Shown here: positions 1,986 through 39,385 of the stretch, one piece after another
Layout: every line of letters begins with the position of its first letter
Numbering within the stretch: position 1 is the stretch's first letter
Assembly: GCA_030695725.1 (NCBI GenBank)
Contig: JAUYPN010000032.1
Coordinates: 1 to 39,385 of the forward strand
DNA length: 39,385 nucleotides
Direction: 5' to 3'
Source of the DNA: Candidatus Omnitrophota bacterium
GTDB lineage: Bacteria > Omnitrophota > Gorgyraeia > 2-01-FULL-45-10
Translations under genes and position numbers: made by a program
The notes under the pieces: model-generated
The model's input: the letters and a program-made list of their open reading frames with translations, nothing else
Told to the model about the DNA's origin: nothing
The model's database searches: none

Positions 1986-4900
1986 TTACCCGCACTTTGA
2001 ATAGCCGCAGGACTTACATACCATGCAGCCTTCTATGTGCCAGAGAGCTCCGCCGCAATCGGGACAGACCCCTACTATGTTCCCTGCCTTCTTCATAGTC
2101 CCTGTCTTTGGACTGCCGCCTGAAGCATCCGGCTGCGGTGAGTCTGTGGTTGTTTCGCTTGTGCTGACGGTGTTGTTGTTATTATTGGGGGTTTTCTTAT
2201 TCTTAGTATCCTGCGCCCTCTGTTCGATAGCCCGGGCTATCGCGTCACTGCACGAGAATATCCTTCCGCCCTTTTCCCAGCTGGGCGAAGGACAGCGTAT
2301 TCCGCGAAGCTGTTCGACTATGGATTCCACCTCTATGCCGCTGCGTAACGCCAGAGATACGAGGCGCCCTATCGCCTCTAACTGGCTCATGGCGCACCCG
2401 CCGGCCTTTCCCATATGCATGAATACCTCGAAAGGCTGGCTCTCTCCGTCTTCATTTATGGTTATATAGAGGTTGCCGCATCCTGTCGCGATCTTGGTGG
2501 TCGTTCCCACTATCACCGGCGGCCTCGGGCGCGGGCTTATCTTGACCCTTGTTTGGGTTTTTTGCTGTCCCTTAGTATCATCAGAAGGTATATTCAATAC
2601 CTGTTCATTGCGCGACTTGTCGCGGTATATGGTGACACCTTTGCATCCGCTCTTATAGGCCAGCATATAGATCGTCCTGACATCCTCTAAAGTGGCTTCG
2701 GACGGCAGATTGACAGTCTTTGAAACGGCGTTGTTCGTGTACTTCTGGAACGCGGCCTGCATCCTTATGTGCCATATGGCCTCTATGTCATGCGCGGTGA
2801 CGAAGAGCTCCTGCACATCGGCCGGCACTTCGGGCACGCCGTGTATCGAGCCCTTCTGAGCGATAAGGCTCATCGTCTCCGGCTTGTAGAAACCTCTTCT
2901 TTCGGCCACCTCCTGGAAATACGGATGCGCTTCTATCATCTTCGTATTATCCATGATGTTCCTTATATAGGTAATGGCGAATACGGGCTCGATGCCGCTT
3001 GAAGAGTTCGCGATTATCGAGAGCGTTCCGGTGGGGGCTATTGTAGTAAGGGTCGCGTTCCTTAAAGGCTTGGCGCTCTTTTTATCATATATGCTTCCTT
3101 TAAAGTTGGGGAACGCGCCCCTCTCTTTTGCCAGGGCCTCAGAGGCGCGGCGCGAGGTATACAGTATGAATTTCATCAGCTTTTCCGCCAGAGCGATCGC
3201 TTCTTCCGAGTCATATCTTATGCCCATCATGAGGAGCATGTCCGCAAACCCCATGACCCCGAGCCCGATCTTCCTGTTAGACTTCGTCATCTCGTCTATC
3301 TTCTTTATCGGATACAAATTCATGTCTATGACATTATCAAGAAAGTGTACCGATTTCTCGATTATTCCGGAAAGTTTATCCCAATCTATTTTTTTATCTT
3401 CGGTAACCATCTTCGCGAGATTTACGGAACCGAGGTTGCAGCTTTCATACGGCAAAAGAGGTTGCTCGCCGCAATTAGAAATACATAACCCATTACAAAT
3501 AAAGGAGCTAGAACAAGGTTCAGTTAAATCGTATACCTCCTCCTCTTTATTTTTTTCTACGCTCTTAATGCCTTCTAAAAATTCAGTCGAATAATACTGT
3601 TTAGTATAAAAATCTTTAATCTTTATACTATGTTTACCGCATAGAAAACCTATTTTATCAAGGAAATCCATAACAACATCTCTTGAAATCTCTAACTCAA
3701 AACAAATGCCATCTAATAAATAATTTCTCAAAACACCTGATTTCGAAGTATATTCGAATCCACGCCTTTCTTTTCTCGTTCTGTTGTATATTCTGGATTT
3801 TATTCCCATATTTAATAATAATATCTGCACGCCTTTTAAGAGCTTTTTGGATTTAGAAGTTAGCCTAACGTAAGAAGATTGGCCTGTCCTAAAATTAACT
3901 GTCCCATCCGCTGTAAATAAGCCCTGCAAAAATCCCGCCACAGCATCTTCTGTAGCTGTAAATATTGATTCCGGAACCTCTTTTTCATCCGCCTGCCACG
4001 GCTTCACTCCCAATTGCCTGAAGAAATCTACAAAGTACTTGCTGTGATACGACAAATGATATACGCCATTTTCCCTTACAACTTCTTTGACAGATAAGCC
4101 ATAGAATGTATTCATGACGTACTTAAGATAGGTAAGGATTTCTTCGTCTTGAGCGCTGAATGTTAATCCGATTCTGCAGTCTTTGTCTCCACCCCTAAGC
4201 CAACCGTCGCCTATTATATAGCCAACCGCCTGACCGAGCTGCCGTGTCCATCTATCCGGAAGATTCAATTTATACGTTTGTCCATTATCTCCTATATATT
4301 CATTTTTTACCTCAAATGGAAGCTTGCTATCCGGATTAAATCTTCCTTCACCGGACTGGATTAGTATTTTGTGGAAACCCGGCTTTAAATTTCTCATCAT
4401 GACCCATCCGCCTGTGGTCATTATCTTATGATCGGGCGTCGCAGTAATCTCATAGCCCGATTCTGTAGTAAGTTTCAGTGTTTCTTTGACACCAGATTTC
4501 CAGGCCTTTGATATAGTACTCAAGCCTACGCCCTGCTTGATTAAAGTCGACGCTGATCCTTCACTGCCGGATAGCGCTTCATATTTAATCTGAAGCACCC
4601 TGTCATCAGTAAGGACAGCTATGCCTCCATCGGAAAATTTCTTCGCGACATCCTTCATTCTCATGAGACCAAATTCTGTTGATATAAGCGATTCCCCGGA
4701 GATACATGGGTTCGTGGATTCGATCTGGCCCACCTTGGGCGTTGGATTATCTTTGTTAACTCTATCGATAAATATTATACCCGGTTCGCCGTTCTTCCAC
4801 GCCATCTGAATGATCATGTCGAAAACTTTTTTGGCGTTCATCTTCTGGACGGATTTTTTAGTTTTTGGGTCGATCAGATCATAATCTTCGCCGGCAAGAG

Positions 4901-19305: not shown

Positions 19306-20562
19306 TTACGTTCCTATTTCCCAACTATCCAGATATTCTTTTTGTTCTTTAGTCAGCATATCTATCTTTAGACCTAAAGATCCCAATTTTAATTTCGCGA
19401 TCCTTTTGTCCAGAAGATCAGGCACTTTATAAACCTTTTTCTCCAGCTTCTTATAATTTTTAGCCATATATTCGCACGAGAGCGCCTGGTTCGCGAAGCT
19501 CATATCCATGACGCTCGCCGGATGGCCTTCCGCCGCGGCCAGGTTGATGAGCCTTCCGGCGCCCAAAAGGTTTACGCGCTTGCCTCCCTTTAGCGTGTAC
19601 TCTTCCACAAATTCCCGAACCACTCTCTTCTTTACCGACATCTTCTCGAGGCCGGTAATATCAATCTCAACATTGAAGTGCCCGGAATTCGCTACTATAG
19701 CTCCGTCCTTCATAACCTCAAAATGTTCTTTTCGTATTACATTTATATCGCCGGTGAGAGTGACGAATACGTCCCCTTTTCTTGCCGCCTCTTTGATAGG
19801 CATCACGCTGTAGCCGTCCATAACTGCCTCAAGAGCCTTCAAAGGATCGACCTCTATTATTATCACATTCGCGCCCATGCCTCTGGCGCGCATCGCCACT
19901 CCCCTGCCGCACCATCCGTAGCCGCATACGACAAAGCTGGATCCGCAAATAAGGACATTCGTTGCTCTTATGATACCGTCCAGAGTAGACTGGCCGGTGC
20001 CGTATCTGTTATCGAACAGGTGTTTTGTGGAGGCATCGTTAACGGCGATTATCGGGTACATGAGAAGCCCCTGCCTCTCGAGGCTCCTTAATCTTATCAC
20101 GCCGGTAGTCGTCTCCTCGGTCCCGCCTATTATGTTTTTGGCAAGATGTTTTTTGGTCTTATGTATCATAGATACGAGATCCGCGCCGTCGTCCATAGTG
20201 ACATGCACATTCGCTTCCAGGACGCTCTCGATATGTTTGTAGTACGTCTTGTTGTCTTCTCCTTTGATAGCGAACGTTGGTATTCCCATATCCTTGACCA
20301 TGGAGGCCGCCACGTCATCCTGGGTGCTCAGAGGATTGGACGCGCATACGAATACGTTGGCGCCGCCTTCCTTCAATGTAAGGGCCAGGTTGGCCGTCTC
20401 TGTCGTCACGTGCAGGCAGCACGCCACGTTCAATCCCTTTAACGGCTTCTCCGTCTTAAAGTGTTTGCGAATGAGTTGAAGCACTTTCATATATTCGTTC
20501 GCCCACTCTATGCGCAGCTTGCCTTTTTTCGCCAGCTTTAAATCCTTAACATCGTACTTCAT
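19306..20562 (-). CDS. ahcY: adenosylhomocysteinase
   Basis: [21 protein letters not shown]..., the NAD-binding stretch [20 protein letters not shown], and HFNVEID. ATG at 20562 follows GGAG. The track's 33-aa N-terminal extension is Arg-rich and overlaps the metK 3' region. Confidence 0.9.
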
Positions 20563-20587
20563 CGTATTCTCCACTTTTAGCTTTAAG

Positions 20588-21760
20588 CTATTTAATGTAT
20601 TTTCCCAGATCTTTCGCCTGGTCCGTCTTCTCCCACGTAAACCCTTCTTCGTTCCTGCCAAAATGGCCGTAGGCCGCGGTCTTCTGGAACCTTTCGCCGT
20701 CCGATTCGCGCAATTTCAGTTCAGCTATGATGCCGTGCGGAGTAAGCTCAAAGTGGTCCCTTATTATCTTTATGAGCTTGTCATCCGAAACTTTTCCCGT
20801 GCCGTATGTATTCACCATTATAGAGACAGGATCGGCGACACCTATAGCGTAGGCAAGCTGCACCATCAATTTATCCGCAAGGCCCGCTTTTACAGTATTC
20901 TTGGCAATATATCGGCCCATGTAGGCGGCAGACCTGTCAACTTTCGTGGCATCTTTACCCGAGAAGGCACCCCCGCCATGCGGGACCGTCCCGCCGTATG
21001 TATCCACTATTATCTTCCTGCCTGTCATGCCAGTATCCGACTGTGGGCCGCCTATGACGAATTTGCCCGTGGCATTTATCAAAAACTTCGTCTCTTTGTC
21101 GATCCAGCCCTTCAATACCGGCTTGGCCACTTTCTCTATTATCTCTCTTCTGGCCTCCTCGCAAAGCATATCCTTTTTCTTGTCCAGAACATCCTCCGTG
21201 TGCTGGCTGGCCAATATCACGGTAGTGACCCTTTTGGGTTTTCCGTCATGATACTCTACGGTGACCTGAGATTTCCCATCGGGCCCGAGGTACTTTAGAA
21301 CGTTCTTCTTCCTGACCTCAGCCAGTTTGCGGGAAAGCTGATGAGCCAGCATTATGGGCAGCGGCATCAATTCCGGCGTCTCGCGGCACGCATATCCCAT
21401 CATCATGCCCTGGTCCCCGGCGCCGCCCGAATCAACGCCCTTGGCTATATCTGGCGACTGAGTATGTATCGCGTTCAATATGGCGCATGTATGGTAATCG
21501 AACCCATATTTGGGATGCGTGTAGCCTATCCTCCTTAAGAGATCCCTGCACAGGCTGTGCATATCGACATACGCGGTCGTCGTCAGCTCTCCGCCTATTA
21601 TGAGCAATCCCATCGTCACATATGTTTCACAGGCGACCCTGCCCGCGGGATCCTGCTTCAACACGCTGTCAAGCACCGCATCGGATACCTGATCGCAAAC
21701 TTTATCGGGGTGACCCTCTGTCACGCTCTCCGAGGTAAAGAGATATTTATGCATCGACAT
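20588..21760 (-). CDS. metK: S-adenosylmethionine synthetase
   Basis: [28 protein letters not shown] and the TAAYGHFGR end are canonical MetK motifs. Confidence 0.95.
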
Positions 21761-27500: not shown

Positions 27501-27564
27501 CCATGTACCCGAACCCCGCTGCTTTCTTGCGAAAGCAAGAAGCGGGGTGAGTGGTACATGGTGC
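27501..27564. repeat. copy A of a 64-nt identical repeat; 61-nt bipartite hairpin overlapping the CCA end of tRNA-Lys
   Basis: CCATGTACC CGAAC CCCCGCT GCTT TCTTGC GAAA GCAAGA AGCGGGG TGAGT GGTACATGG (+TGC). Identical over 64 nt to 28160-28223. Confidence 0.9.
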
Positions 27565-27634
27565 CCGCACCAAGAATCGAACTTGGAACCTTGACATTAA
27601 GAGTGTCCTGCTCTGCCAATTGAGCTATGCGGGC
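27559..27634 (-). tRNA. tRNA-Lys (anticodon CUU), CCA encoded
   Basis: Hand-folded cloverleaf of 76 nt: GCCCGCA-TA-GCTC-AATTGGCA-GAGC-A-GGACA-CTCTTAA-TGTCA-AGGTT-CCAAG-TTCGATT-CTTGG-TGCGGGC-A-CCA. Confidence 0.9.
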
Positions 27635-27636
27635 AT

Positions 27637-27711
27637 TGGAGCGGCGGATGGGGTTCGAACCCACGACATCGACCTTGGCAAGGTCGCATTCTACCACTGA
27701 ATTACCGCCGC
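27637..27711 (-). tRNA. tRNA-Gly (anticodon GCC), CCA encoded
   Basis: Hand-folded, 75 nt: GCGGCGG-TA-ATTC-AGTGGTA-GAAT-G-CGACC-TTGCCAA-GGTCG-ATGTC-GTGGG-TTCGAAC-CCCAT-CCGCCGC-T-CCA. Confidence 0.9.
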
Positions 27712-27717
27712 TGGTCA

Positions 27718-27758
27718 TAAAAAGCTCACTGCGACCAACTATAAATAGACGCAGTAAG
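27718..27758 (-). terminator. terminator-like hairpin 7 nt upstream of tRNA-Gly
   Basis: Minus strand: CTTACTGCG (27750-27758) pairs with CGCAGTGAG (27725-27733). 9 bp including one G-U, 16-nt loop, followed by CTTTTTAT. Confidence 0.4.
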
Positions 27759-27913
27759 TCTTGTTCGCTTTTTATTCCTCATAGGGGGAACCCAAGGTTC
27801 CCCCTGATGACGCTCGGCCTTACAGGCCTCGCTGTCACCCCTTCCTATAGCCACGCATTAGCCATTGTTTCAAGAAATAGCCTTGTGTGTCTATATGCTA
27901 TAGAGGTACGAAA
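27719..27913 (-). ncRNA. candidate ~190-nt non-coding RNA of unknown class
   Basis: Bounded by the promoter at 27920-27948 and the hairpin/U-tract at 27718-27758, with no credible ORF. It contains a perfect 9-bp hairpin GGGGGAACC-TTG-GGTTCCCCC (27783-27805). A second hairpin, GAC-A-GC-GA-GGCC/GGCC-GA-GC-GTC, has tandem G-A pairs (27809-27838). End coordinates are estimates. Confidence 0.3.
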
Positions 27914-27919
27914 GTGATG

Positions 27920-27948
27920 ATTATATCAAAGGACGCCGGGGAAATCAA
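27920..27948 (-). promoter_or_regulatory. near-consensus sigma70 promoter TTGATT-17-(TGa)TATAAT
   Basis: Minus strand TTGATT (27943-27948), 17-nt spacer ending in TG-n, TATAAT (27920-27925). Confidence 0.6.
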
Positions 27949-27974
27949 TGAGAAACACGCTGATGCCTGATGCC

Positions 27975-28136
27975 CTACAGCTGCTTTTCGTTTATCTTTA
28001 TGAGGCACTGCTTCATCTCTTTGAGCTCTTTAAGCAGGTCTTTCTCAACGATCGCCATATCTTTCATAAATCTCTGCAGTATTACAACGCTCGCGAGGAT
28101 CAAAACGACTATTATCCCCAAGACTACGATCATCAT
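27975..28136 (-). CDS. 53-aa single-TM plus coiled-coil-like protein, unknown function
   Basis: ATG-ATG at 28136/28133 lies 5 nt after AGGAGG. Product: MMIVVLGIIVVLILASVVILQRFMKDMAIVEKDLLKELKEMKQCLIKINEKQL. The N-terminal part of track ORF 27975..28259 runs through the repeat and tRNA-Leu and is rejected. Confidence 0.45.
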   Translation of the reverse strand: MMIVVLGIIVVLILASVVILQRFMKDMAIVEKDLLKELKEMKQCLIKINEKQL

Positions 28137-28159
28137 ACGCCTCCTGTAAAAATGGCCCG

Positions 28160-28223
28160 CCATGTACCCGAACCCCGCTGCTTTCTTGCGAAAGCAAGAA
28201 GCGGGGTGAGTGGTACATGGTGC
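28160..28223. repeat. copy B of the 64-nt identical repeat; hairpin overlapping the CCA end of tRNA-Leu
   Basis: Identical to 27501-27564. The hairpin proper spans 28160-28220. Confidence 0.9.
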
Positions 28224-28302
28224 GGACGGGGGGATTTGAACCCTCAAGCCTTTCGGCATACGGTCCTAAGCCGTAAACGTTTGCCAGTTTCGTCACGTCC
28301 GC
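28218..28302 (-). tRNA. tRNA-Leu (anticodon UAG), class II with long variable arm, CCA encoded
   Basis: Hand-folded, 85 nt: GCGGACG-TG-ACG-AAACTGGCAAA-CGT-T-TACGG-CTTAGGA-CCGTA-TGCCGAAAGGCTT-GAGGG-TTCAAAT-CCCCC-CGTCCGC-A-CCA. Confidence 0.85.
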
Positions 28303-28350
28303 ACGAATGATATTTAATGCTCCCTTTGTCCCTCGCCTAAACATATGTAC

Positions 28351-28415
28351 TACCCCCTTGATTTTAAATTTGCCACTCATAAATTACATCAAATTTCAAA
28401 TCAAAGCAGGGGGTA
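28351..28415. repeat. bipartite hairpin in the tRNA-Arg/tRNA-Leu spacer; diverged, oppositely oriented relative of the 64-nt element
   Basis: TACCCCCT (28351-28358) pairs with AGGGGGTA (28408-28415). TGATTT (28359-28364) pairs with AAATCA (28398-28403). A 4-nt AAGC bulge sits at 28404-28407. The string AAGCAGGGGG mirrors AAGCAGCGGGG of the 64-nt element read on the opposite strand. Confidence 0.4.
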
Positions 28416-28451
28416 CAAATTTTGCTACTACCTTTCAACAGCAAAATTTAG

Positions 28452-28528
28452 TGGCGCGCCTGGGGTGAATCGAACACCCAACCTACTGGTTCGAAGCCAG
28501 CCACTCTATCCAATTGAGCTACAGGCGC
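28452..28528 (-). tRNA. tRNA-Arg (anticodon UCG), CCA encoded
   Basis: Hand-folded, 77 nt: GCGCCTG-TA-GCTC-AATTGGATA-GAGT-G-GCTGG-CTTCGAA-CCAGT-AGGTT-GGGTG-TTCGATT-CACCC-CAGGCGC-G-CCA. Confidence 0.9.
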
Positions 28529-28744: not shown

Positions 28745-30982
28745 CTATTCTTCAACACGTAGATTTATGAACAATAATACCAGCGCTGACAGGTTGATAA
28801 GCGCAATGGCGAAGCATGTTTTTGGTATTCCCAGTATCGGAATCAAGAATATGCCCGTTAAGAGCGCTCCTAAAAATGAGCCGAAGAGGTCTATACCGTA
28901 ACTCAATCCGCCCACCCTGCCCGCATCCTTCTTTTGACCGAGCAATACCCTGCTGGCGAGAGCGAATTGGGCGCCGCCTATCGATCCGGCTATTACGGAT
29001 AAGACCGGAAATAAGGGATCCGGACAAAATCTTGAGAATACCGCGCCCAATAGTACGGAGAAAATTATGAAATCACCCTGCACCGCCATAAGAAATATCC
29101 TGTCGCGTTTCGTTTCAGGTATAAATTTTATGACAAAGACAGCGCCCAGGGCCAGGCCCGCCATAAAAGCGGTGAGGATAATGCCCAATTTATAGAAGAG
29201 GTACCCGTACATCGTCTGAAATGTGAGCAGTATGAGCAGCTGGAAAGCCATAGAGCTAAAGCCGCCGGTCATCACCGCCATAAGCGAGGATCTCTTAAAA
29301 GACCACCTGCGCGTTATGGAGATAACCGCGAGCAGGATCATAAAGATGCCTATGAAGCGCCATATTACAGATTCGGTGACCGATCTTAAGATATTTGAAA
29401 ATACGGAATTCCTGAATAGCGTCGTCCAGAATATGAGCCCGTAATAATACGCGACGGGCCTCGAATCATGATTTATTACCGCGCCGTTGCCGCCCTTTAT
29501 GATCTTTTCGGAATAAGCTATTTCTTCCGGGGAAAGCTTTGAGAAGAGGTAATAATCCCGCACATACTGCGTATCGAGCGCTCTGGCGAGAGTCCTCTCT
29601 TCTAATATTTTATGATCATAAGTTAGACTGCCGATCGAATCCGACGCCAGGAAGTACGCGGTTTCACCCGGTATCACGATCACTTCGCTGAATACAGATC
29701 TTAAAGTAGCGTAGATGGATCTTAAAAATTCCGCCAGGGACTTGCTTATATAGCTCTCGCTTGATGTAAGCCCGAAAGATACGAGGCCGCTTTCCTTAAG
29801 CGCCTTCTTGACCTCATTGAAAAATTCTGACGTGTAATATCTATTAACCTCTGCCGTATAGGGATCGCCGGTGTGAATTATGATACAATCGTATAATTCT
29901 ATTGCGTTTTTGACAAAAAATCTTCCGTCCGTGTTTTTTATCGAGACTCTGGTGTCTTTGAGCGCTTTATAATAACTTTCGGGCAGATTATTTTCCGATA
30001 TCTTTATTATGGACGGGTCGAGCTCAACATAGTCCACTTTCTCGACGCGGTGTTTCAGTATCTCTCCCACCAGTCCGCCGGAGCCTCCGCCTATTAAAAG
30101 CACTCTCCTTGGATCCTTATGTTCCAACAGCGCCAGATGTACGGCCTCTTCCGAGTTCGGCTTATCCGGTATCGTGTAAAGACGAAGCCCATTATTGAAT
30201 AAGGAATAATCTTCCCCTCTCCTGGCTATCAGGATATTCCCATATATCGAATTTTTGGTGTCCAGGATCTCGTAGCCCTGCCACTGCTTCTGAAGCGAGT
30301 AACGTTCTATCGCTTTCAAGCCGCCGAAAGACCACAGCGCAATGATTACAACTGAAAGAAATAAACCGGTTGCTTTAAAAATTTTGTCATTGCGAGCAAT
30401 GACGGACCTCAATAAAAACGCGGCCATGATATTTAACAGCGCAAGTATGGCTGCGATATGGAGCGCATCGAATGATCTGATAAGTATAAAACTTGTGACG
30501 GTACCGCCTATTATCGAACCTATGGCCTCGAGAATATAGACGGTTCCTATTCCCCGCGCGCCGTCACTTTGCCGGGAAGCATATATACTGCAGCCAAGCG
30601 GGAAGATAAAACCCATCAATACACAGATAGGCGCCAGAATCGCAAAGCTCGCGGCCATTATCGGAAATAGCCCTACGATCTCTCCGGGGTTGACCCCGAG
30701 GAAGACCTTAATGAATTTTACCGCCGCGATCCCCGCTATAAGCAGTGATCCTAAAGTCATCTGACATAGAGAAAAGGCCTCTGCATTCGGCCTTATCCTG
30801 TCCGCGTACTTTCCGAATACGGCGCTGCCCAAGGCCCCGCTGATGAGCCAGCCGGCAAGTATGAAACTTATCGATAGCTCATTCCCGTAAAATACGACCA
30901 AGAGCTCCCGCATATAAACTATCTGCGAGGCCATCGCCGTGGCGCCTGCCAGGATTATCGATAACGATATAATTTTTTTCAT
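28745..30982 (-). CDS. membrane-embedded spermidine-synthase-like (aminopropyltransferase fold) fusion protein
   Basis: ATG at 30982 overlaps the upstream stop (ATGA). An N-terminal block of about 7-8 TM helices is followed by a central SpeE-like domain (VLLIGGGSGGLVGEILKH..VEKVDYVELDP...IIHTGDP) and a C-terminal block of about 5-6 TM helices. Confidence 0.8.
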   Translation of the reverse strand: MKKIISLSIILAGATAMASQIVYMRELLVVFYGNELSISFILAGWLISGALGSAVFGKYADRIRPNAEAFSLCQMTLGSLLIAGIAAVKFIKVFLGVNPGEIVGLFPIMAASFAILAPICVLMGFIFPLGCSIYASRQSDGARGIGTVYILEAIGSIIGGTVTSFILIRSFDALHIAAILALLNIMAAFLLRSVIARNDKIFKATGLFLSVVIIALWSFGGLKAIERYSLQKQWQGYEILDTKNSIYGNILIARRGEDYSLFNNGLRLYTIPDKPNSEEAVHLALLEHKDPRRVLLIGGGSGGLVGEILKHRVEKVDYVELDPSIIKISENNLPESYYKALKDTRVSIKNTDGRFFVKNAIELYDCIIIHTGDPYTAEVNRYYTSEFFNEVKKALKESGLVSFGLTSSESYISKSLAEFLRSIYATLRSVFSEVIVIPGETAYFLASDSIGSLTYDHKILEERTLARALDTQYVRDYYLFSKLSPEEIAYSEKIIKGGNGAVINHDSRPVAYYYGLIFWTTLFRNSVFSNILRSVTESVIWRFIGIFMILLAVISITRRWSFKRSSLMAVMTGGFSSMAFQLLILLTFQTMYGYLFYKLGIILTAFMAGLALGAVFVIKFIPETKRDRIFLMAVQGDFIIFSVLLGAVFSRFCPDPLFPVLSVIAGSIGGAQFALASRVLLGQKKDAGRVGGLSYGIDLFGSFLGALLTGIFLIPILGIPKTCFAIALINLSALVLLFINLRVEE

Positions 30983-31641
30983 ATTCTTTTTAATATCAGT
31001 CCCAGCCCCAGCATCAACAATAATAACGCGCACATTGTCTTAAATATGACAGTAGCGGTCTTTGACCTTACAAGCGCGGCGGGAATGCGCGTCAAAAGCC
31101 CTGTGATCACGCCGATGGTGATCAGTCCCGATAGAAACGTCCCCAGTCCGAAGAAGAACGCATAGAGAGCGCCGTCGAGAAGGCCTTTTGACATAAGGGC
31201 TATGTCGAAGAGAAGCGCCAGAAGCGGAGCGCACGGACTTATGCCTATCAGAAAACCGAAAGCGAACATTCCGCCGAAATTGAGCATTTTACTTCGGGCG
31301 GTCGGACAAGCGCAGTTACCGCTATTTTTGCCCGTAAATAAGATAATCGCGAAGAGGATAGTCACCGCCCCGGCAAGCGGCTCGAGATATGATGAAAAAT
31401 GGAGGTCGGTGAATTTTTTTAAAACAGCGCCGGAGAGCCCGGCCAACACCCCCAACAATACATAAGCAAGCAGTCTGCCGGAAAGAAACGTGAATACATC
31501 TCTGAATATCGCCGTCGGACCTTTCCCGCTTCCGACTATATAAGTGACGAGGACAGGCGCGCAGATCAAAAGACACGGCCCGGCGAGGCCGAAACTGAAG
31601 CCAATCCCGAAGATCTGCAGATAAGTTACTAAGGTGCCCAT
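30979..31641 (-). CDS. CcdA/DsbD_2-like thiol-disulfide membrane protein
   Basis: Six hydrophobic helices, with Cys in P-C contexts (GLAGPCLLICAPVL and GISPCAPLL) as in CcdA/DsbD cores. ATG at 31641 is preferred over the track's TTG at 31665. Confidence 0.55.
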   Translation of the reverse strand: MGTLVTYLQIFGIGFSFGLAGPCLLICAPVLVTYIVGSGKGPTAIFRDVFTFLSGRLLAYVLLGVLAGLSGAVLKKFTDLHFSSYLEPLAGAVTILFAIILFTGKNSGNCACPTARSKMLNFGGMFAFGFLIGISPCAPLLALLFDIALMSKGLLDGALYAFFFGLGTFLSGLITIGVITGLLTRIPAALVRSKTATVIFKTMCALLLLMLGLGLILKRI

Positions 31642-32741
31642 ATGCCTGATATCGACCTGCCGCAAAACTTACATCTCTTGTCCTTGATATTGTTCTCTGT
31701 TATGCGGTAGCCGATCCTGCCGACTATAAGTTTTTTACACTGGGGGCAATATGTGTTTTCACCGGCATGGCCGGGAACGTTCCCTATGTAGACATAATCG
31801 AGCCCGGCATCTTTGGCTATTTTGTAAGCTTCTTCCAATTTCGAAACGGGTGTGGGCGGCAGGTTCTGAAGCCGAAAAGAAGGCATGAAGCGCGAAAAAT
31901 GCACCGGCGTATCGGCTCCCAGATTATCCCTTATCCACTCGCACATCGATCTTATCTCTTTAGGATCGTCGTTCAACCCGGGTATTATCAGATTTGTGAT
32001 CTCCAGCCACACCCCTTCTTTTTTTACGGTCTTAAGCGTATTTAATACCGGTTCGAGGGACGCGAAAGCCCCCATCTTCTGATAAAATTTTTCATTGAAA
32101 CCTTTCAGGTCGACATTGACGGCATCCATATACTTTAGCAGCTCTTTAAGCGGTTCCTGATTGATGTAGCCGCAGGTGTGCATGCCGTTCTTCAGTCCTT
32201 TAGACCTTGCAAGTTTCGAGATGTCGAGCATGTATTCATAAAATACGGTGGGCTCAGTGTAGGTGTACACTATGAACGGGCAGTCGTTCTTTATCGCTTC
32301 GGATACAACCATCTCCGGAGGCATGTCATATACGGTAACCTCATCGGGTCTGGCCTGGGAGATCTGCCAGTTCTGGCAGAAGAGACAGCGCATGTTGCAG
32401 CCCGCCACCGCTATGGAGAACGCGCTTGTACCCGGCAGGACATTAAAGAACGGTTTCTTCTCTATGGGGTCGATATGGACCGCGACCGGGTTGCCGTAGC
32501 CGAGAGTGTAGAGAACTCCGTCTTTATTCACCCGAACGGTGCACAGGCCTCTCTGGCCGTTATCTATAACGCATTTACGCGGGCACAGGACGCACTGAAT
32601 AATCTTGTCTTTAATCTTATTCCAGAAACTGGCGACTCTCGGGACCGGTTTGTCAGCGTAGGAAAAATGCGCTGGAAGAATAGATATAAGAAACAAGATT
32701 GTGGCGACTGATATGAGTTTACGCATAATGAGTAGCCTCAC
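31629..32741 (-). CDS. AmmeMemoRadiSam-system-type radical SAM enzyme (PflA-like) with extra N-terminal signal-anchor
   Basis: CVLCPRKCVIDNGQRGLCTVRVNKDGVLYTLGYGNPVAVHIDPIEKKPFFNVLPGTSAFSIAVAGCNMRCLFCQNWQISQ matches the family's N-terminal Cys motif plus CxxxCxxC. A hydrophobic segment MRKLISVATILFLISILPAHFSYA precedes it. An alternative ATG start lies at 32726. Confidence 0.8.
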   Translation of the reverse strand: MRLLIMRKLISVATILFLISILPAHFSYADKPVPRVASFWNKIKDKIIQCVLCPRKCVIDNGQRGLCTVRVNKDGVLYTLGYGNPVAVHIDPIEKKPFFNVLPGTSAFSIAVAGCNMRCLFCQNWQISQARPDEVTVYDMPPEMVVSEAIKNDCPFIVYTYTEPTVFYEYMLDISKLARSKGLKNGMHTCGYINQEPLKELLKYMDAVNVDLKGFNEKFYQKMGAFASLEPVLNTLKTVKKEGVWLEITNLIIPGLNDDPKEIRSMCEWIRDNLGADTPVHFSRFMPSFRLQNLPPTPVSKLEEAYKIAKDAGLDYVYIGNVPGHAGENTYCPQCKKLIVGRIGYRITENNIKDKRCKFCGRSISGIWAP

Positions 32742-32756
32742 CTGCGAAGCGGGTTT

Positions 32757-33779
32757 TTACCCACCTCGCAGGCGGGATTCCTGTCCTATGTTGAACTCTC
32801 TGCCTTCCAGATCTTTAAAAGCGTGCCCTTCGGAATCGCAGGGGTTGCAGAAGCCGTAATCATGGCACAGGAAGAAATCCTGCGGCATGACTATACGAAG
32901 ATCTTTATCCATCCCTCGACGCACTTCGTTTGCTCGGGATGGACCCTGAGCTTTTGTCGAAGGGTCCAATATATTGCCGAACTTTTCTTTGTGGCCCGTA
33001 TAAAGCTTATAGTGGCAGTTATATATATCTCCGTTCGGGGCGAAGAGGACTTTCTTCATGCGGCAATAGATATCTTTTTTCCCGGACTGGTTGAATCCCT
33101 CGCGATACGCTTCATAATTTCTTATGCCGTCTTCCTGCTCGCATACGACATCATAGGCGTCTTCCACCGGATACAGATCGTCTTCATGCCGTCCGAAAAA
33201 TCTCTGAAGCTTTACTATCTTGTGTATTTTCAACAATCTATTTTTATACTCCTCTATCTCTTTCATGTGCGCCGGATGCGCGACAAGAAATATGCTATGG
33301 ACAAAAAAACCCGCCTTTTTCATCTTCTTCACATTTTCGATGAATTTATCTATATCCGCGTACATAAAATGATACGAGGCGTTGAATTTAATACTACGTC
33401 TTCTTTTGATCTGCTTTAAGAATTTTACATCCCTGTTGAAAAATGGCGAGGTGAAGTTCGAGGTAACGGTTATCTTCCAATCCTTGTCGAGGTTATTGAG
33501 GATATACATAAAGTCAGGATGCAATGATGGCTCGCCGCCAGTGATCGATATCTTTTTTCTCTTTGGGTACCTTAGGAATCTTTTTTTGGTCCTTCCCGTG
33601 ATACTATTGAGGGACTCGACCCACTCTTTGCCGGAAATAAGCGGGTAATGCGCGATCGGCTGATTGGGAAGCGTTATCTTCTGCACGCAGTATTCGCACG
33701 GCAGGCTGCAGCTTAAATTGAGAAAGGCCCCGAAGTAATAATCGAACGGCGCCTCGATCACCCAGGTGTATTCAGGCAT
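32757..33779 (-). CDS. radical SAM enzyme with C-terminal SPASM/twitch-like Cys motifs
   Basis: CSLPCEYC (CxxxCxxC), ISITGGEPSLHPDF (GGE SAM motif), C-x10-G-x4-C (CRMKKVLFAPNGDIYNC), and C-x5-C-x2-C (CHDYGFCNPC). Confidence 0.8.
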   Translation of the reverse strand: MPEYTWVIEAPFDYYFGAFLNLSCSLPCEYCVQKITLPNQPIAHYPLISGKEWVESLNSITGRTKKRFLRYPKRKKISITGGEPSLHPDFMYILNNLDKDWKITVTSNFTSPFFNRDVKFLKQIKRRRSIKFNASYHFMYADIDKFIENVKKMKKAGFFVHSIFLVAHPAHMKEIEEYKNRLLKIHKIVKLQRFFGRHEDDLYPVEDAYDVVCEQEDGIRNYEAYREGFNQSGKKDIYCRMKKVLFAPNGDIYNCHYKLYTGHKEKFGNILDPSTKAQGPSRANEVRRGMDKDLRIVMPQDFFLCHDYGFCNPCDSEGHAFKDLEGREFNIGQESRLRGG

Positions 33780-33786
33780 GCATGGT

Positions 33787-33815
33787 ATTATAGGCCGGGC
33801 GGAGCGTTATATCAA
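33787..33815 (-). promoter_or_regulatory. promoter TTGATA-17-TATAAT ending 7 nt before the radical-SAM start codon (leaderless configuration)
   Basis: Minus strand TTGATA (33810-33815), 17-nt spacer, TATAAT (33787-33792), then ACCATGC and ATG (33779). No Shine-Dalgarno sequence is possible. Confidence 0.55.
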
Positions 33816-34516: not shown

Positions 34517-34822
34517 TCACTTCCCGCTTATCATCTGAATAACAATGCCCGCGACGACGCTTATTCCTATCAACAGGCCGATAATTGAAATGGTGTCCTT
34601 CGTATCCTTGTTCTCTTTTACAAGCACAAGCATCCCCAGTCCCGCTCCGGCGCATAGCCCCGCCACCATCGAACCAAAACTGATGGCGCCCTTGGCGAAG
34701 AGCCCTGCTAAGAGAACCGAGGCAAAACAGTTCGGTATGAGCTCTGAGACAAAAAAATAGACGGCCGCCAGTATTGGCAGCAGTCTTATTGTATCCGTGA
34801 AAGCATCCGTTAACAGATACAT
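34517..34822 (-). CDS. 101-aa three-helix membrane protein; resembles only the C-terminal end of ~400-aa ArsP_2/putative-metal-transporter proteins
   Basis: IPNCFASVLLAGLFAKGAISFGSMVAGLCAGAGLGMLVLVKENKDTKDT... recalls the C-terminal module of that family (from recall, not searched). The start lies 1 nt after the B12-rSAM stop. Confidence 0.5.
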   Translation of the reverse strand: MYLLTDAFTDTIRLLPILAAVYFFVSELIPNCFASVLLAGLFAKGAISFGSMVAGLCAGAGLGMLVLVKENKDTKDTISIIGLLIGISVVAGIVIQMISGK

Positions 34823-34823
34823 T

Positions 34824-36143
34824 TTACGCTTTTTTTAAACTCGTCCCGCAGCGTGGATTGGGTTGCGCCAGCCACGTCATGTTGCAGTTATGTTTCACCC
34901 ATTCCTTGATGGTGAAATGACCTATGAAGCGGAACATGGCGTTCCTGAAGTGCAGCTGAATGAGCGAGGCGAGCGCCCTGCGCAGAGAATAAAATTTTAT
35001 ATACGCCTGGAGAGCGGTCGTCTGCAGGTCTTTTGCCGATAACAATTTCGGGTTGAACACGACGTGCTGGCCGTCATAAAGGCTCCAGTCCTTTGTGAAG
35101 ATCCTCTTCTGCTCGTCCAAAGATTCATAGACTTTCGTGCCCGGGAACGGAGTAAGTATCGCCATCTGTATGGTATCTATCTTATGTTTTATGGTGAACT
35201 TTAATGTCTCCCATATGGCGCTCTTGCCGTCATCCTCTCCCCCCAATATGAACATGCCGTGGATCTTTATCTTTCTTCTGTGAAAAGAACGTATGGCGCT
35301 CACGATCTCATCAAGGGTCTGCCGCTTCTTGTAGGCCTGCAATGTCGCGGGATTTATGGATTCGAAGCCGATGCAGACCGCCCTGCACCCCGAGTCGGCC
35401 ATGAGCCTCAGGAGCCCCTTGTCTTTGGCGGCGTCACAACGCACCTGGCAGTTCCAGTGATTCATCCTATTCTTCCGCAGAAGCTCCAAGAGAAGCCTTG
35501 TACGCTTCGGATCGGCTGTGAAATTATCGTCCACGAAGAAGAACGATCTCGTGCGCCTGGACTTCATCTCTTCGATGATATTTTCGGCGCTGCGGAAACG
35601 GTATTTGCGCCCGAAGATCTTTGTGACCGAGCAAAAACTACAGTCAAAAGGGCATCCTCTTGATGTGGAGATAGGCATGGTAAGGAACGAAGGCCAAAAG
35701 CCTTTGACTAATGTGAAGTCGGGATTAGGCAGGGTGTCTAAGTCCTCTACCGGAGTGCCATAAACGATAGGCTCTCTTCTCCTGCCCTCGGCCACATCTA
35801 CGATAGCATCATCGGCCTCTCCCACCACGACCTGTCTGCAGAACGGAAGCGCCTCCTCCGGAAGCAGACTCGCGTGAACGCCGCCGATGATCACTTTATC
35901 TTTGGGGAATTGCCTGGCTATCTCGTAGCCGCGCTTGGCCGTTGAAGTCAGAATGGAAATGCCGATAAGATCCGCGCCGAGCTTCGAATAGTTGGGCTTA
36001 TGAATGTCTTCGTTGTAGATCTCGACCTTGTGCCCTCTCTTCTTTAGGATGGTCCCGAGGTAGACCGGACCCAATAGAGGCATGGACGACTTGCTGTAGA
36101 CATTTCCTTCTGAAGCGGTAGGCTCTATGAGGACTATCTTCAT
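34824..36143 (-). CDS. B12-binding-domain radical SAM enzyme
   Basis: The N-terminus MKIVLIEPT...PLLGPVYLGTILKKRGHKVEIYNEDI has a cobalamin-binding Rossmann pattern, and STSRGCPFDCSFCSV is the rSAM cluster motif. 439 aa. Confidence 0.85.
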   Translation of the reverse strand: MKIVLIEPTASEGNVYSKSSMPLLGPVYLGTILKKRGHKVEIYNEDIHKPNYSKLGADLIGISILTSTAKRGYEIARQFPKDKVIIGGVHASLLPEEALPFCRQVVVGEADDAIVDVAEGRRREPIVYGTPVEDLDTLPNPDFTLVKGFWPSFLTMPISTSRGCPFDCSFCSVTKIFGRKYRFRSAENIIEEMKSRRTRSFFFVDDNFTADPKRTRLLLELLRKNRMNHWNCQVRCDAAKDKGLLRLMADSGCRAVCIGFESINPATLQAYKKRQTLDEIVSAIRSFHRRKIKIHGMFILGGEDDGKSAIWETLKFTIKHKIDTIQMAILTPFPGTKVYESLDEQKRIFTKDWSLYDGQHVVFNPKLLSAKDLQTTALQAYIKFYSLRRALASLIQLHFRNAMFRFIGHFTIKEWVKHNCNMTWLAQPNPRCGTSLKKA

Positions 36144-37797: not shown

Positions 37798-39102
37798 TTA
37801 ATAGCTGTAACGTAAACGGCTGTAAACATTAGAATCGCCCTTATACTGACCCCAATCCGCATTGTCCTGGTTTCCGAGAAATATATTACCGCCAATGATA
37901 AGACTCCACGCATCTGCAGCCTTCCATGAGAGTGAAGGCCTGAGATACACATCCTTGTCTACTGGGCTATAGAAGACAAAGAGAGAAGCATTGACCGTCT
38001 GATTCGCGAAGAGTTTCGTAAACCGTAACGTGTACTGTTGATACGCCTTGTCATCCTGGAGGTCGCCGGGCAGAAGGCTGTTCTTGTAGGCAGTATAATG
38101 CAGCATCTGAATAATGTAGTATTGGAGACCCGCTTCAAAGTCGTTCTTGAATCCGCGCTTATACCCAATGAGATACTGCATGGTCGAACCTTGCACCAAG
38201 CGGTTCTTGGCGTAATCGTCTTCCTTTGAATCCAGAAAGCCTGCTTCAAAATTAGCTATGCCTCCAACGGCCGGAACAGGTCCCTGGACGCTTGCGCCAT
38301 ATACATCGAGCTCGGGATAATAGAGCTCTCCCGTCTGCTGATTCTTGTATCCTACGGGACTTTTATAGAAACCATGGTTATAGTAGAAAGCCCATTCGTA
38401 GCTATTCACTGTCTCATAGAGCCTCGCCGCTACTTCAGTATTATTGATCTTCATCGGAGGCTCGCGAAAAAATCGATCTGACTGTGCGCCGACCACCCGG
38501 CCGAACAACGGATCAAAGAAAGAGATCCTTCTTCCCTTCGGCACATTATTAGATGTAAATGCCGGTATGGCCACAAGGTCGAGTGACGCTAACTTCCCGG
38601 AGAGTGTAAGGCGCCCCGCATACGACGGCAGTTTAAGGTATTCGTCGTCCCTTCCTATGATGAACGATACGTAGTCTTTCGGAAACTGGTCATTTATGAA
38701 TATGTAGTCCCCCGTGCCCCAAGTCAGTATCTGCTCGCCGATCTTGACATCCGCAAAACTGAATGGCGTAAAAGCTATATAGAGTTCCCGCGGGCCCCAC
38801 CACTTTGGCTGTTCCGTATACTCATCTATGAGGACATCGGTCTTGAAGAAGATCTCGGTGTTCCATTGCTTAAGGATGGCGAACTCGTCAGGAAAATACC
38901 GTAGCTTGAACTGTGAGCGCTGCTCTGCCATGTTGTAGCCATTCTTCGACGCCAGCTTGTCATCATTCACTTTCAACCCAATGTCGGCCTCGACAAAGCC
39001 GTGCAGCTTTGGCACTTCGGCGGCAGGCACTGCGACGGACGCGCACATACTTACCGTCGCTGTCGCCGCCAGAATTACCAATATTTTATTAATATTCGTC
39101 AT
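37798..39102 (-). CDS. outer-membrane beta-barrel protein (porin-like)
   Basis: ATG at 39102 gives MTNINKILVILAATATVSMCASVAVPAAE (signal peptide). The body has alternating-hydrophobicity strands rich in Y/G/N/D. The C-terminus ...SRLRYSY has the aromatic residue typical of OMPs. Confidence 0.75.
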   Translation of the reverse strand: MTNINKILVILAATATVSMCASVAVPAAEVPKLHGFVEADIGLKVNDDKLASKNGYNMAEQRSQFKLRYFPDEFAILKQWNTEIFFKTDVLIDEYTEQPKWWGPRELYIAFTPFSFADVKIGEQILTWGTGDYIFINDQFPKDYVSFIIGRDDEYLKLPSYAGRLTLSGKLASLDLVAIPAFTSNNVPKGRRISFFDPLFGRVVGAQSDRFFREPPMKINNTEVAARLYETVNSYEWAFYYNHGFYKSPVGYKNQQTGELYYPELDVYGASVQGPVPAVGGIANFEAGFLDSKEDDYAKNRLVQGSTMQYLIGYKRGFKNDFEAGLQYYIIQMLHYTAYKNSLLPGDLQDDKAYQQYTLRFTKLFANQTVNASLFVFYSPVDKDVYLRPSLSWKAADAWSLIIGGNIFLGNQDNADWGQYKGDSNVYSRLRYSY

Positions 39103-39131
39103 AATCGGCCTTAACAAGAATAAAGTTCTTC

Positions 39132-39385
39132 TTAATCTCCAACCCATTGTCTGGGGGGCCTGCGCAACAGTCTCTCTTGAAAGATATCCGAAGTGATCCC
39201 CGCATTATAGGAGACCTCTTTCATAGTAATCTCGGTATACCGTTCACCCTCAAGATCCTTCATCACCGCTTTGGCGATTGTCGGTGCACCTTGAATAGTT
39301 TGAATCTCCCGGGTTTCGTAAACCTTGTAAAGCTTTCCTTTAAGATCATAGTGCTCTACTTTAAGCGGGAGATGTGTCGCTTTAT
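39132..39385 (-). CDS. LolA-like outer-membrane lipoprotein-sorting family protein; N-terminus off the right edge
   Basis: My own translation: ...KATHLPLKVEHYDLKGKLYKVYETREIQTIQGAPTIAKAVMKDLEGERYTEITMKEVSYNAGITSDIFQERLLRRPPRQWVGD*. The stop is at 39132-39134. The family call is from recall of the LolA-like C-terminal pattern and its frequent pairing with a porin-like OMP. Confidence 0.5.
   Translation of the reverse strand, partial: KATHLPLKVEHYDLKGKLYKVYETREIQTIQGAPTIAKAVMKDLEGERYTEITMKEVSYNAGITSDIFQERLLRRPPRQWVGD

Follow-up and report, generated by a model that had tools for sequence, protein, structure and literature searches.

We analyzed a 39,385-nucleotide (nt) stretch of a Candidatus Omnitrophota bacterium (contig JAUYPN010000032.1 of assembly GCA_030695725.1; hereafter the window), in which four minus-strand genes, here called g1 to g4, encode two radical S-adenosylmethionine (SAM) enzymes, a DsbD_2-type membrane protein, and a large membrane protein with an inserted domain of the spermidine synthase (SpeE) fold. 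For g1 and g4 alike, the best homologues all belong to Omnitrophota, in agreement with the origin of the contig. We found that g2, g3, and g4 are a conserved functional unit, which g1 precedes in one sub-clade, and we lean modestly towards reading the cluster as g1 plus a conserved extracytoplasmic radical SAM (rSAM) module, g2-g3-g4, whose substrate we leave unassigned. The features of the cluster, in the direction of transcription, are as follows.

33787..33815, minus strand: sigma-70-type promoter TTGATA-17-TATAAT, matching the consensus at 11 of 12 positions
32757..33779, minus strand: g1, twitch/SPASM-like rSAM enzyme, start ATG 33779, 340 amino acids (aa)
31629..32726, minus strand: g2, AmmeMemoRadiSam-type rSAM enzyme, likely start ATG 32726, 365 aa rather than 370
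30979..31641, minus strand: g3, CcdA/DsbD_2-like membrane protein, start ATG 31641, 220 aa
28745..30982, minus strand: g4, membrane protein with an inserted SpeE-fold domain, start ATG 30982, 745 aa

The corresponding open reading frames (ORFs) extend over 32757-33779, 31629-32741, 30979-31665, and 28745-31033, and the likely starts within them were set from the N-termini of homologues and from the sequence itself. The motif AGGTGAGG is positioned 8-15 nt upstream of the g2 ATG at 32726, which makes the g1-g2 gap 30 nt; the gap of 15 nt given in a preliminary description of this stretch applies only if an upstream GTG is taken as the g2 start. The two other junctions stand as described there, the start of g3 overlapping the end of g2 by 13 nt and g3 meeting g4 in an ATGA overlap (-4 nt). 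The same description had four tightly packed minus-strand genes following one near-consensus promoter, a possibly leaderless g1, and four domain classes; the ORFs were confirmed, the promoter proved to be conserved, and the domain classes were recovered as Pfam and NCBIfam matches. The TATAAT hexamer ends 7 nt before the g1 ATG. As a promoter call the site alone is weak, because the region holds 13 promoter-like sites against 9.3 +/- 2.6 in shuffled sequences, that is, no excess. The leaderless reading is supported because TATAAT and its spacing of 6-7 nt to the ATG, which leaves no room for a Shine-Dalgarno sequence, are kept in all six syntenic sequences (the window, L008, L010, L011, L012, and L013), five of which also have the full TTGATA -35 hexamer (TTGCCC in L010). 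The g1 mRNA is probably leaderless.

The conservation of the cluster was examined in loci anchored on g4. Among GTDB species representatives, 568 relatives of g4 were confirmed and 80 loci were kept. In 35 species-level loci of Omnitrophota, g2, g3, and g4 are collinear while the identity of g4 falls from 77% to 42%, and in eight further loci g2 abuts g4 with g3 absent. When only the 39 loci with at least 2 kb of upstream and 3.5 kb of downstream sequence were counted, g2 lay beside g4 in 35. The g2-g4 pairing spans Omnitrophota, Thermodesulfobacteriota, Acidobacteriota, and one Calditrichaceae metagenome-assembled genome (MAG), and in the latter three groups g2 is convergent to g4. Fusions provide independent proof of the link between g2 and g3: P0245 and P0246 join DsbD_2 to the rSAM domain, P0255 combines DsbD_2, FMN_bind, Fer4_5, and rSAM, and in L091 the P0245 gene overlaps by 11 nt with the gene after it, which encodes a 753-aa Spermine_synth homologue of g4. 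Chance adjacency of three functionally unrelated genes, for which only the general frequency of unrelated operon neighbors would speak, is effectively refuted for g2, g3, and g4 both by the pairing across phyla in differing orientations and by the g3-g2 fusions, one of them with g4 next to it. We also tested the association in reverse, using metagenome loci anchored on relatives of g2 of the twin-arginine translocation (Tat) type and flanked by 3 kb or more on either side (n=28). In these, g4 was within reach in 13 (about 46%) and Memo or AMMECR1 in 12. Comparison of 35/39 with 13/28 indicates that g4 depends on this rSAM enzyme more than the reverse.

The g2 protein matched TIGR04337 with 381.1 bits (cutoff 220), residues 38-368 corresponding to model positions 2-333 of 349. 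Its rSAM cysteines are C110, C114, and C117, and beyond these cluster ligands three N-terminal and four C-terminal cysteines are invariant. The only solved sequence relative of g2 is PflA (3C8F; E = 8e-12 over the rSAM core), from which g2 differs by these additional cysteines (three N-terminal, four C-terminal) and by a signal sequence; a glycyl-radical enzyme partner for g2 was not identified. The signal sequence lies in the first 37 residues, an add-on before the TIGR04337 match, and corresponds to the following segment.

32655..32726, minus strand: N-terminal signal/anchor segment of g2, MRKLISVATILFLISILPAHFSYA, outside the TIGR04337 model

In the window this segment consists of MRK, a hydrophobic region, and SYA. 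Among 60 g4-linked homologues of g2, 53 could be classified, and all 53 have a hydrophobic N-terminal segment. In 21 of them, orthologues in other phyla, the segment begins with a canonical Tat motif of the form (S/T)RRxFLK (e.g., DRRSFLKCALASGAALG...AWA or SRREFLK); a signal made of K/R, a hydrophobic region, and an AxA-type site occurs in 30, all from Omnitrophota and including the window; and the remaining two have the hydrophobic segment only. Of 80 metagenomic relatives of g2, nearly all bear signals of these kinds, and most carry canonical RR or KR motifs. In the Omnitrophota proteins the mean net charge is +2.2 in the N-terminal flank of the helix and +0.3 in the flank after it, which indicates an N-in/C-out orientation. 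The AmmeMemoRadiSam-type identity given to g2 in the preliminary description is therefore right by its TIGR04337 match, whereas the length of 370 aa (likely 365) and the notion of a simple anchor need revision, since the branch carries Tat or general secretory (Sec) signals. This branch is a distinct one within a family of 8,713 detectable members. Among the 150 closest cluster representatives at 50% identity, the top 30 include 10 with Tat-like signals, 4 with Sec-like signals, and 10 long fusions, and below rank 60 these forms fade to proteins without an extension; the concentration in the top ranks is what defines the branch.

The long fusions connect g2-type enzymes with extracytosolic modules. 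P0258 and P0264 begin with one N-terminal transmembrane (TM) segment followed by FMN_bind and then rSAM, with no TM segment between the two domains, and their FMN_bind domains carry the ApbE flavinylation motif DxxSGAT (DTVSGAT and DAVSGAT). In P0244 and P0255, six TM segments lie between FMN_bind and rSAM, and in P0255 FMN_bind directly follows the six-TM DsbD_2 block. Two other members place the rSAM domain behind modules typical of exported proteins: a PorZ/Reg_prop-like beta-propeller in P0243 (919 aa; L094 6001-8760), where a DsbD_2 gene lies two genes downstream, and a CBM11 carbohydrate-binding module in P0251 (681 aa). The propeller and CBM11 fusions hint that some members of the g2 branch act on polysaccharides or cell-surface components.

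The g3 protein was described at the outset as a CcdA/DsbD_2-like protein with two P-C motifs, and this assignment holds. It matched PF13386 (DsbD_2) with 66.4 bits (cutoff 24.9), and like the CcdA/DsbD conduits, with which it shares the DsbD_2 fold, it has a P-C motif in TM1 and another in TM4: both P22-C23-x3-C27-x-P29 and P136-C137-x-P139 are found unchanged in all 36 sequences compared. No thioredoxin-like partner for g3 is encoded in the window. TlpA/AhpC-like thioredoxin genes lie beside g4 in six other loci (L048, L051, L053, L061, L070, and L072), and in two of these, L061 and L070 of Thermodesulfobacteriota, the thioredoxin gene stands between tandem g4 paralogues of 820 and 778 aa. 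Judging from the DsbD_2-rSAM fusions P0245, P0246, and P0255, the rSAM enzyme itself may be the acceptor of the reductant delivered by g3. Modules of the FMN_bind/NapH-like and DsbD types are described as conduits to extracytosolic redox enzymes in a survey that mentions no radical SAM enzyme, Memo, AMMECR1, or spermidine synthase (Meheust et al. 2021, PMC8238504). The same kinds of module, namely DsbD_2, flavinylatable FMN_bind, and PF12801 NapH-like modules, occur in fusions with relatives of g2; unlike those in that survey, the conduits here would serve a radical SAM enzyme. The contigs that carry the NapH-like fusions, L092 and L093, are too short for their gene context to be seen.

In g4, Pfam detected a Spermine_synth domain (100 bits) flanked by TM blocks. 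The protein passed NF037959, "fused MFS/spermidine synthase" (MFS, major facilitator superfamily), with 65.4 bits against a cutoff of 40, and fell below all SpeE equivalog cutoffs (174/472 for NF002956, 120/260 for NF002010, and 104/249.55 for TIGR00417); against PRK03612 it reached 174 bits (cutoff 472). We built an AlphaFold2 (AF2) model of g4, which had a predicted local distance difference test score (pLDDT) of 83.7 and a predicted TM-score (pTM) of 0.81 and by its nature gives no orientation. The model consists of seven TM helices, a linker helix, the SpeE-fold domain, two short helices, and again seven TM helices.

30329..30982, minus strand: TM1-TM7 of g4, aa 1-218, with TM1-6 as the first MFS-like repeat
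29483..30271, minus strand: SpeE-fold domain of g4, aa 238-500, with GGGSGG at 298 and HTGDP at 370
28766..29374, minus strand: TM8-TM14 of g4, aa 537-739, with TM9-14 as the second MFS-like repeat

The two halves are an internal duplication in the form of a parallel repeat (aa 2-197 against aa 563-743; hhalign probability 99%, E = 8e-18), and MFS_1 matches were found in 7 of 39 g4 members (best E = 1.5e-5). Foldseek on the full model returned aminopropyltransferases only (e.g., 1UIR, 2O06, and 3O4F, with target TM-scores of 0.70-0.76) and gave no class for the TM fold. As modeled, g4 has a transporter-like 6+6 MFS-like core, in which TM7, the inserted domain, and TM8 form a central hairpin, an arrangement also seen in 14-TM MFS proteins. 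Proteins covered by NF037959 and PRK03612 share with g4 the SpeE fold and the 6+6 MFS-like TM region; in g4, however, the SpeE-fold domain sits between two TM blocks and is not terminal.

Two considerations bear on the side of the membrane to which this domain is exposed. MFS halves start and end in the cytoplasm, and therefore the tip of the TM7-TM8 hairpin, with the SpeE-fold domain, would lie outside. The distribution of Lys and Arg over the loops of 76 homologues leads to the same topology, since loops 2-3, 4-5, 6-7, 8-9, 10-11, and 12-13 have mean K+R counts of 2.3-4.0 (sum about 19), as against 0-2.1 (sum about 5) for the alternate loops. The SpeE-fold domain of g4 is thus predicted to face the periplasm, which answers, at the level of prediction, the question of its topology raised in the preliminary description.

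The residues of this domain were compared with those of SpeE proteins (1UIR, 7XIF, 2O06, and 1INL), whose fold and nucleoside-binding residues g4 shares: the ribose-binding Glu, E320, is kept in 75 of 76 g4 homologues and the adenine-binding (N6) Asp, D352, in all 76. In SpeE, the acid of GGG(D/E)G selects decarboxylated SAM (dcSAM), and the first Asp of D-(S/L)-(S/T)-D-P is the catalytic base. The former is Glu in 1UIR and 7XIF and is absent from all 76 g4 homologues, which show GGG(V/A/I/S)G and further variants instead (Val in 35, Ala in 12, Ile in 10, Met in 5, Leu in 5, and Ser in 3; Ser in the window). At the first Asp of D-x-x-D-P, the homologues have mostly Asn (33) or His (22), with Asp in 7 and Ser in 6, and the window has His. 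A further difference from SpeE is the predicted periplasmic location of the domain. Because the defining acids are absent and the equivalog cutoffs are missed, g4 does not appear to be an aminopropyltransferase, at any rate not a canonical dcSAM-specific one; it is predicted to bind an adenosyl compound. What was originally said of g4 thus survives as far as the 745 aa and the SpeE fold between TM blocks are concerned, and the name spermidine synthase does not. The statement that every catalytic step of the cluster depends on SAM or dcSAM loses its dcSAM part for the same reason.

An alternative, which we regard as improbable, is a tethered system facing the cytoplasm, in which g2 is only anchored and g4 is a membrane-bound dcSAM-dependent polyamine or related aminopropyl transferase. 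It would agree with the established knowledge that radical SAM and SpeE enzymes, SAM, and dcSAM are otherwise cytoplasmic, with the lack of RR in the g2 signal of the window, and with the SpeE fold of g4, including its 174 bits against PRK03612. However, it would have to accommodate the Tat motifs of the orthologues and the rSAM domains fused to flavinylated FMN_bind or behind the C-terminus of DsbD_2; an outside position of the g4 domain follows from the positive-inside pattern as well as from the 6+6 repeat logic; and the acids for dcSAM selectivity and catalysis are missing along with all SpeE equivalog cutoffs. A role in anti-phage defence, viperin-like or MADS-like, is very improbable in our view. 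Its support comes from PADLOC, which gave weak pVip matches of 21-26 bits for g1 and g2 and a mad2 match of 57 bits on g4; these are at the generic fold level, the other pVip or MADS components are absent, and the module is vertically conserved across the phylum in housekeeping neighborhoods, where no mobile-element signatures were found. The mad2 match (a MADS component) covers residues 278-438 of g4, probably reflects generic similarity to the class-I methyltransferase fold, and agrees with a motif I in g4 that is methyltransferase-like rather than aminopropyltransferase-like.

In other lineages the g2-g4 pair is accompanied by further proteins. The layout in Acidobacteria is g4 in one direction and, converging on it, genes for a Memo-AMMECR1 fusion, g2, DUF362, and a polyferredoxin, so that a complete AmmeMemoRadiSam triad stands beside g4. 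Memo-AMMECR1 fusions near g4-linked rSAM genes bear signals in both Acidobacteria and Thermodesulfobacteriota, and the DUF362 partner proteins in other phyla carry SRRDFLK. The L070 locus encodes a signal-bearing Memo-AMMECR1 fusion as well as separate AMMECR1 and Memo proteins without signals, and L061 and L070 suggest that cytoplasmic and exported versions coexist. We also identified rSAM-AMMECR1-Memo single polypeptides of 1,019-1,152 aa (P0304, P0307, P0318, P0329, P0332, P0344, P0351, P0357, P0362, P0371, and P0373) and two with other orders of these domains (P0269 and P0254). The triple fusions are strong independent confirmation that rSAM, AMMECR1, and Memo act together. Fusions of rSAM to g4 had been sought among representatives of 1,000-1,150 aa, and the candidates proved to be such rSAM-AMMECR1-Memo proteins. 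Compared with the AmmeMemoRadiSam system, g2 has the same TIGR04337 rSAM domain and relatives in the triple fusions with AMMECR1 and Memo; it differs in that its branch has Tat or Sec signals or membrane-conduit fusions outside the family model, and in that its partners in the window are DsbD_2 and the MFS-SpeE fusion rather than AMMECR1 and Memo.

The first gene of the cluster has a different history. Pfam recognized only Radical_SAM in g1, with no match to the SPASM domain PF13186. Its rSAM motif CxxxCxxC corresponds to C24, C28, and C31, and five auxiliary cysteines follow in C239-x10-G250-x4-C255 and C305-x5-C311-x2-C314; the eight cysteines are invariant in 109-110 of 110 homologues, so that the motifs noted earlier are real. 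The best NCBIfam matches (ArsS and twitch) remained far under the cutoffs (NF033640, 24.7 bits versus 170), and a sequence search of the PDB gave no meaningful match (best E = 0.88). A structure model of g1 with a pLDDT of 89.6 had as its best Foldseek matches anSME (4K36), SuiB (5V1S), and DesII (8HZY) at E = 1e-6 to 1e-5, and these were weak, with TM-scores of 0.3-0.48. The protein has no signal peptide and is therefore taken to be cytoplasmic. With anSME, SuiB, and DesII it shares C-x10-G-x4-C, which fits the half-motif C-x9-15-G-x4-C, and further C-terminal cysteines; it has, however, five rather than the seven auxiliary cysteines of SPASM proteins and neither a SPASM Pfam match nor a PDB sequence match. 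The five auxiliary cysteines would fit one auxiliary cluster, and the classification by hidden Markov models and structure, envisaged in the preliminary description, thus comes out as twitch-like and not SPASM. A side feature of g1 in the window is an insertion of about 20 residues (the SRANEVRRGMDKDLRI region; window 32892-32951, residues about 277-296), of which residues 281-288 have a pLDDT below 50; most homologues are without it, and only P0002 has one too.

The g1 family comprises 483 matches, and all named ones are from Omnitrophota. We judged its synteny from the genomic contexts of eight homologues. Homologues with 83% and 69% identity (L008 and L010) retain all four genes in order; at 76% the contig stops right after g1 (P0013); and at 64% (P0032), 62%, 53%, 47%, and 30% the neighborhoods are different and without g2-g4. 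These more distant homologues lie beside purB/purL, between a pabB-like gene and a CCA enzyme gene, or in lipopolysaccharide (LPS) and glycan clusters. Within the last group, P0102 (47% identity; L005 6895-9967 and L006) belongs to an LPS-type cluster, in which its start runs into the end of a DegT/DnrJ/EryC1 aminotransferase gene and an NDP-sugar epimerase/dehydratase gene comes next. This DegT-rSAM-epimerase arrangement resembles the DesI-DesII pairing and, together with the DesII match, hints by analogy at a sugar-nucleotide substrate for g1, which we treat as a lead only. Among the 80 g4-anchored species-level loci, g1 adjoins the module in L011-L014 only, about 30 other Omnitrophota loci have the trio preceded by other genes (e.g., a RecJ-like gene), and in other phyla no g1 homologue was found near g2 or g4. 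Because synteny is lost at 64% identity and below, g1 does not belong to the conserved module, with which it is probably co-transcribed in the window; it came to stand before g2-g4, and brought its leaderless promoter along, in a single sub-clade of Omnitrophota.

Two further explanations turn on g1. One is that all four genes form a single pathway in this clade, the cytoplasmic g1 making or modifying a precursor that g2-g4 process at the membrane. The shared and conserved leaderless promoter, the close junctions (30, -13, and -4 nt), and the retention of the order in L008 and L010-L014 at 69-83% g1 identity are in its favor; however, g1 homologues at 30-64% occur in pur, pabB/CCA, and LPS-glycan contexts without g2-g4, and the roughly 30 trios with other preceding genes and the restriction of the g1 association to Omnitrophota also speak against it, so that we consider it unlikely. 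The earlier proposal that the four genes are one unit, to be checked by gene-neighborhood analysis, accordingly holds for g2-g3-g4 and, for g1, only within a narrow clade (69-83% identity; L008 and L010-L014), the synteny being gone at 64% or less. The other explanation is a cluster for a ribosomally synthesized and post-translationally modified peptide (RiPP), or for protein maturation, in which g1, g2, or both modify a ribosomal peptide. The C-x10-G-x4-C motif of g1 and the presence of SuiB and anSME among its structural matches would fit, and g1 had indeed been assigned to the class that usually modifies peptides or proteins. This assignment does not stand up to the five auxiliary cysteines, the missing SPASM Pfam match, and the variable and partly glycan-related contexts of distant homologues. 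In addition, the cluster contains no precursor-peptide ORF, as had been observed from the start; its junctions leave no room for one, small ORFs are lacking, and neither a protease nor a transporter nor a RiPP recognition element was found. We thus regard a RiPP or protein-maturation role as very unlikely.

Our preferred reading, a conserved extracytoplasmic module with g1 as a clade-specific neighbor, leads to the following proposal. The module g2-g3-g4 probably works at the outer surface of the cytoplasmic membrane, because of the g2 signals, the fusions to extracytosolic modules, the positive-inside pattern and 6+6 duplication of g4, and the signal-bearing partners. The N-terminal signal of g2 would export the enzyme or tether it outside, and the nucleoside-binding domain of g4 would be held in the outward TM7-TM8 hairpin; for both, the indications are strong. 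The invariant cysteines of g3 would relay reducing equivalents across the membrane, either keeping the cysteines or iron-sulfur (Fe-S) ligands of g2 reduced or giving g2 its electrons, and in other lineages NapH-like/FMN_bind fusions or Tat-type DUF362 with polyferredoxin appear to replace g3. The remaining steps are speculative. The body of g4 might move SAM out, or 5'-deoxyadenosine or methylthioadenosine (MTA) in, while its outward domain might bind an adenosyl compound beside g2 and hand over SAM or alkylate a substrate; alternatively, a Tat-exported g2 might carry SAM out itself and act once as an activase. A candidate substrate would be a lipid or glycan of the envelope, or else a protein partner, either g4 itself or, in lineages that have them, Memo/AMMECR1. 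The full picture, an exported PflA-like rSAM enzyme served by transmembrane electron conduits and by adenosyl traffic through g4 and working outside the cytoplasm, is put forward tentatively, with slightly less than an even chance in our estimate.

Several observations weigh against this proposal. The outer-face topology is a prediction: signals and TM segments were called by regular expressions, simple hydropathy, and the positive-inside rule, and the g4 model carries no information on orientation. All loci compared are MAG or metagenome contigs. The g2 signal of the window has RK instead of RR and looks Sec-like, and we know of no route for inserting an Fe-S cluster after Sec export. The g4-linked g2 of L067 has no signal, and the reverse test shows that g4 is not obligatory for signal-bearing g2 relatives. 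SAM has no known occurrence in the periplasm, nor are thiol-disulfide conduits such as CcdA known to reduce Fe-S clusters. AMMECR1 was found neither in the window (Pfam on ORFs and tblastn) nor beside the Omnitrophota trios; Memo had no match in the window, and in Omnitrophota a Memo without a signal lies 2-7 kb away in three loci only (L030, L039, and L071). Finally, g3 and DUF362/polyferredoxin never co-occur (no overlap between 35 and 13 loci or between 5 and 24 loci), and this exclusivity fits alternative solutions to the same need but is confounded with phylogeny.

The surroundings of the cluster contribute little to its interpretation. Two genes of SAM metabolism lie on the far side of g4.

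20588-21760: metK, about 7-8 kb from the cluster
19306-20661: ahcY, about 7-8 kb from the cluster

Their distance had been remarked on and is correct, but their nearness is common only to close relatives and is not taken as a sign of function. Directly downstream of g4 are four tRNA genes (Lys-CTT, Gly-GCC, Leu-TAG, and Arg-TCG; window 27559-28528, minus strand), the only hits of an Rfam scan of the window, with no obvious terminator between g4 and the first of them. Upstream, a 101-aa ORF (34517-34822, minus strand) is the remnant of an ArsP_2-type 10-TM permease. Only the N- and C-terminal ends of the 297-aa L008 orthologue are left, the last 74 aa being 92% identical, which points to the internal loss of about 600 nt here. 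Just past a divergent VTT/DedA gene, a 439-aa B12-binding radical SAM enzyme is encoded (34824-36143, minus strand), with its counterpart in the same place in L008 (5028-6359), so that this small region has three radical SAM genes. Farther away, a 1,615-aa large subunit of ribonucleotide reductase with a C-terminal TSCPD domain (1986-6833, minus strand) is broken up by intein sequence (two Intein_splicing and two LAGLIDADG_3 stretches), and a 449-aa ORF (37798-39147, minus strand) had no Pfam match at E <= 0.001.

The component families of the module have been named already but are uncharacterised. We found no description of the association, the export signals, or the conduit fusions of the g2 branch in the literature searched, nor any experimental or contextual description of the fused MFS/spermidine synthase family, in keeping with the initial impression that the combination matches no described pathway. 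A study by Burroughs et al. (2019, J Biol Chem 294:10211; PMC6664185) reportedly covers Memo-AMMECR1-rSAM contexts and might mention a SpeE-fusion context. For annotation, our results mean that g4-type proteins of about 750 aa should not be named spermidine synthases. They also bear indirectly on Memo and AMMECR1, the human homologues of which are linked to disease but unexplained in biochemical terms. To our knowledge, radical SAM enzymes have been treated as cytoplasmic; their requirements are SAM, a reductant of low potential, and a cluster that is oxygen-labile. If the proposed location is true, the cytoplasm-only assumption for radical SAM enzymes would be overturned, and the question would arise of how the periplasm is supplied with SAM and electrons. 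In many anaerobes, Memo/AMMECR1/rSAM chemistry would then belong to the cell envelope, and there would be a first functional handle on two widespread families, that of the AmmeMemoRadiSam rSAM enzymes and that of the fused MFS/spermidine synthases.

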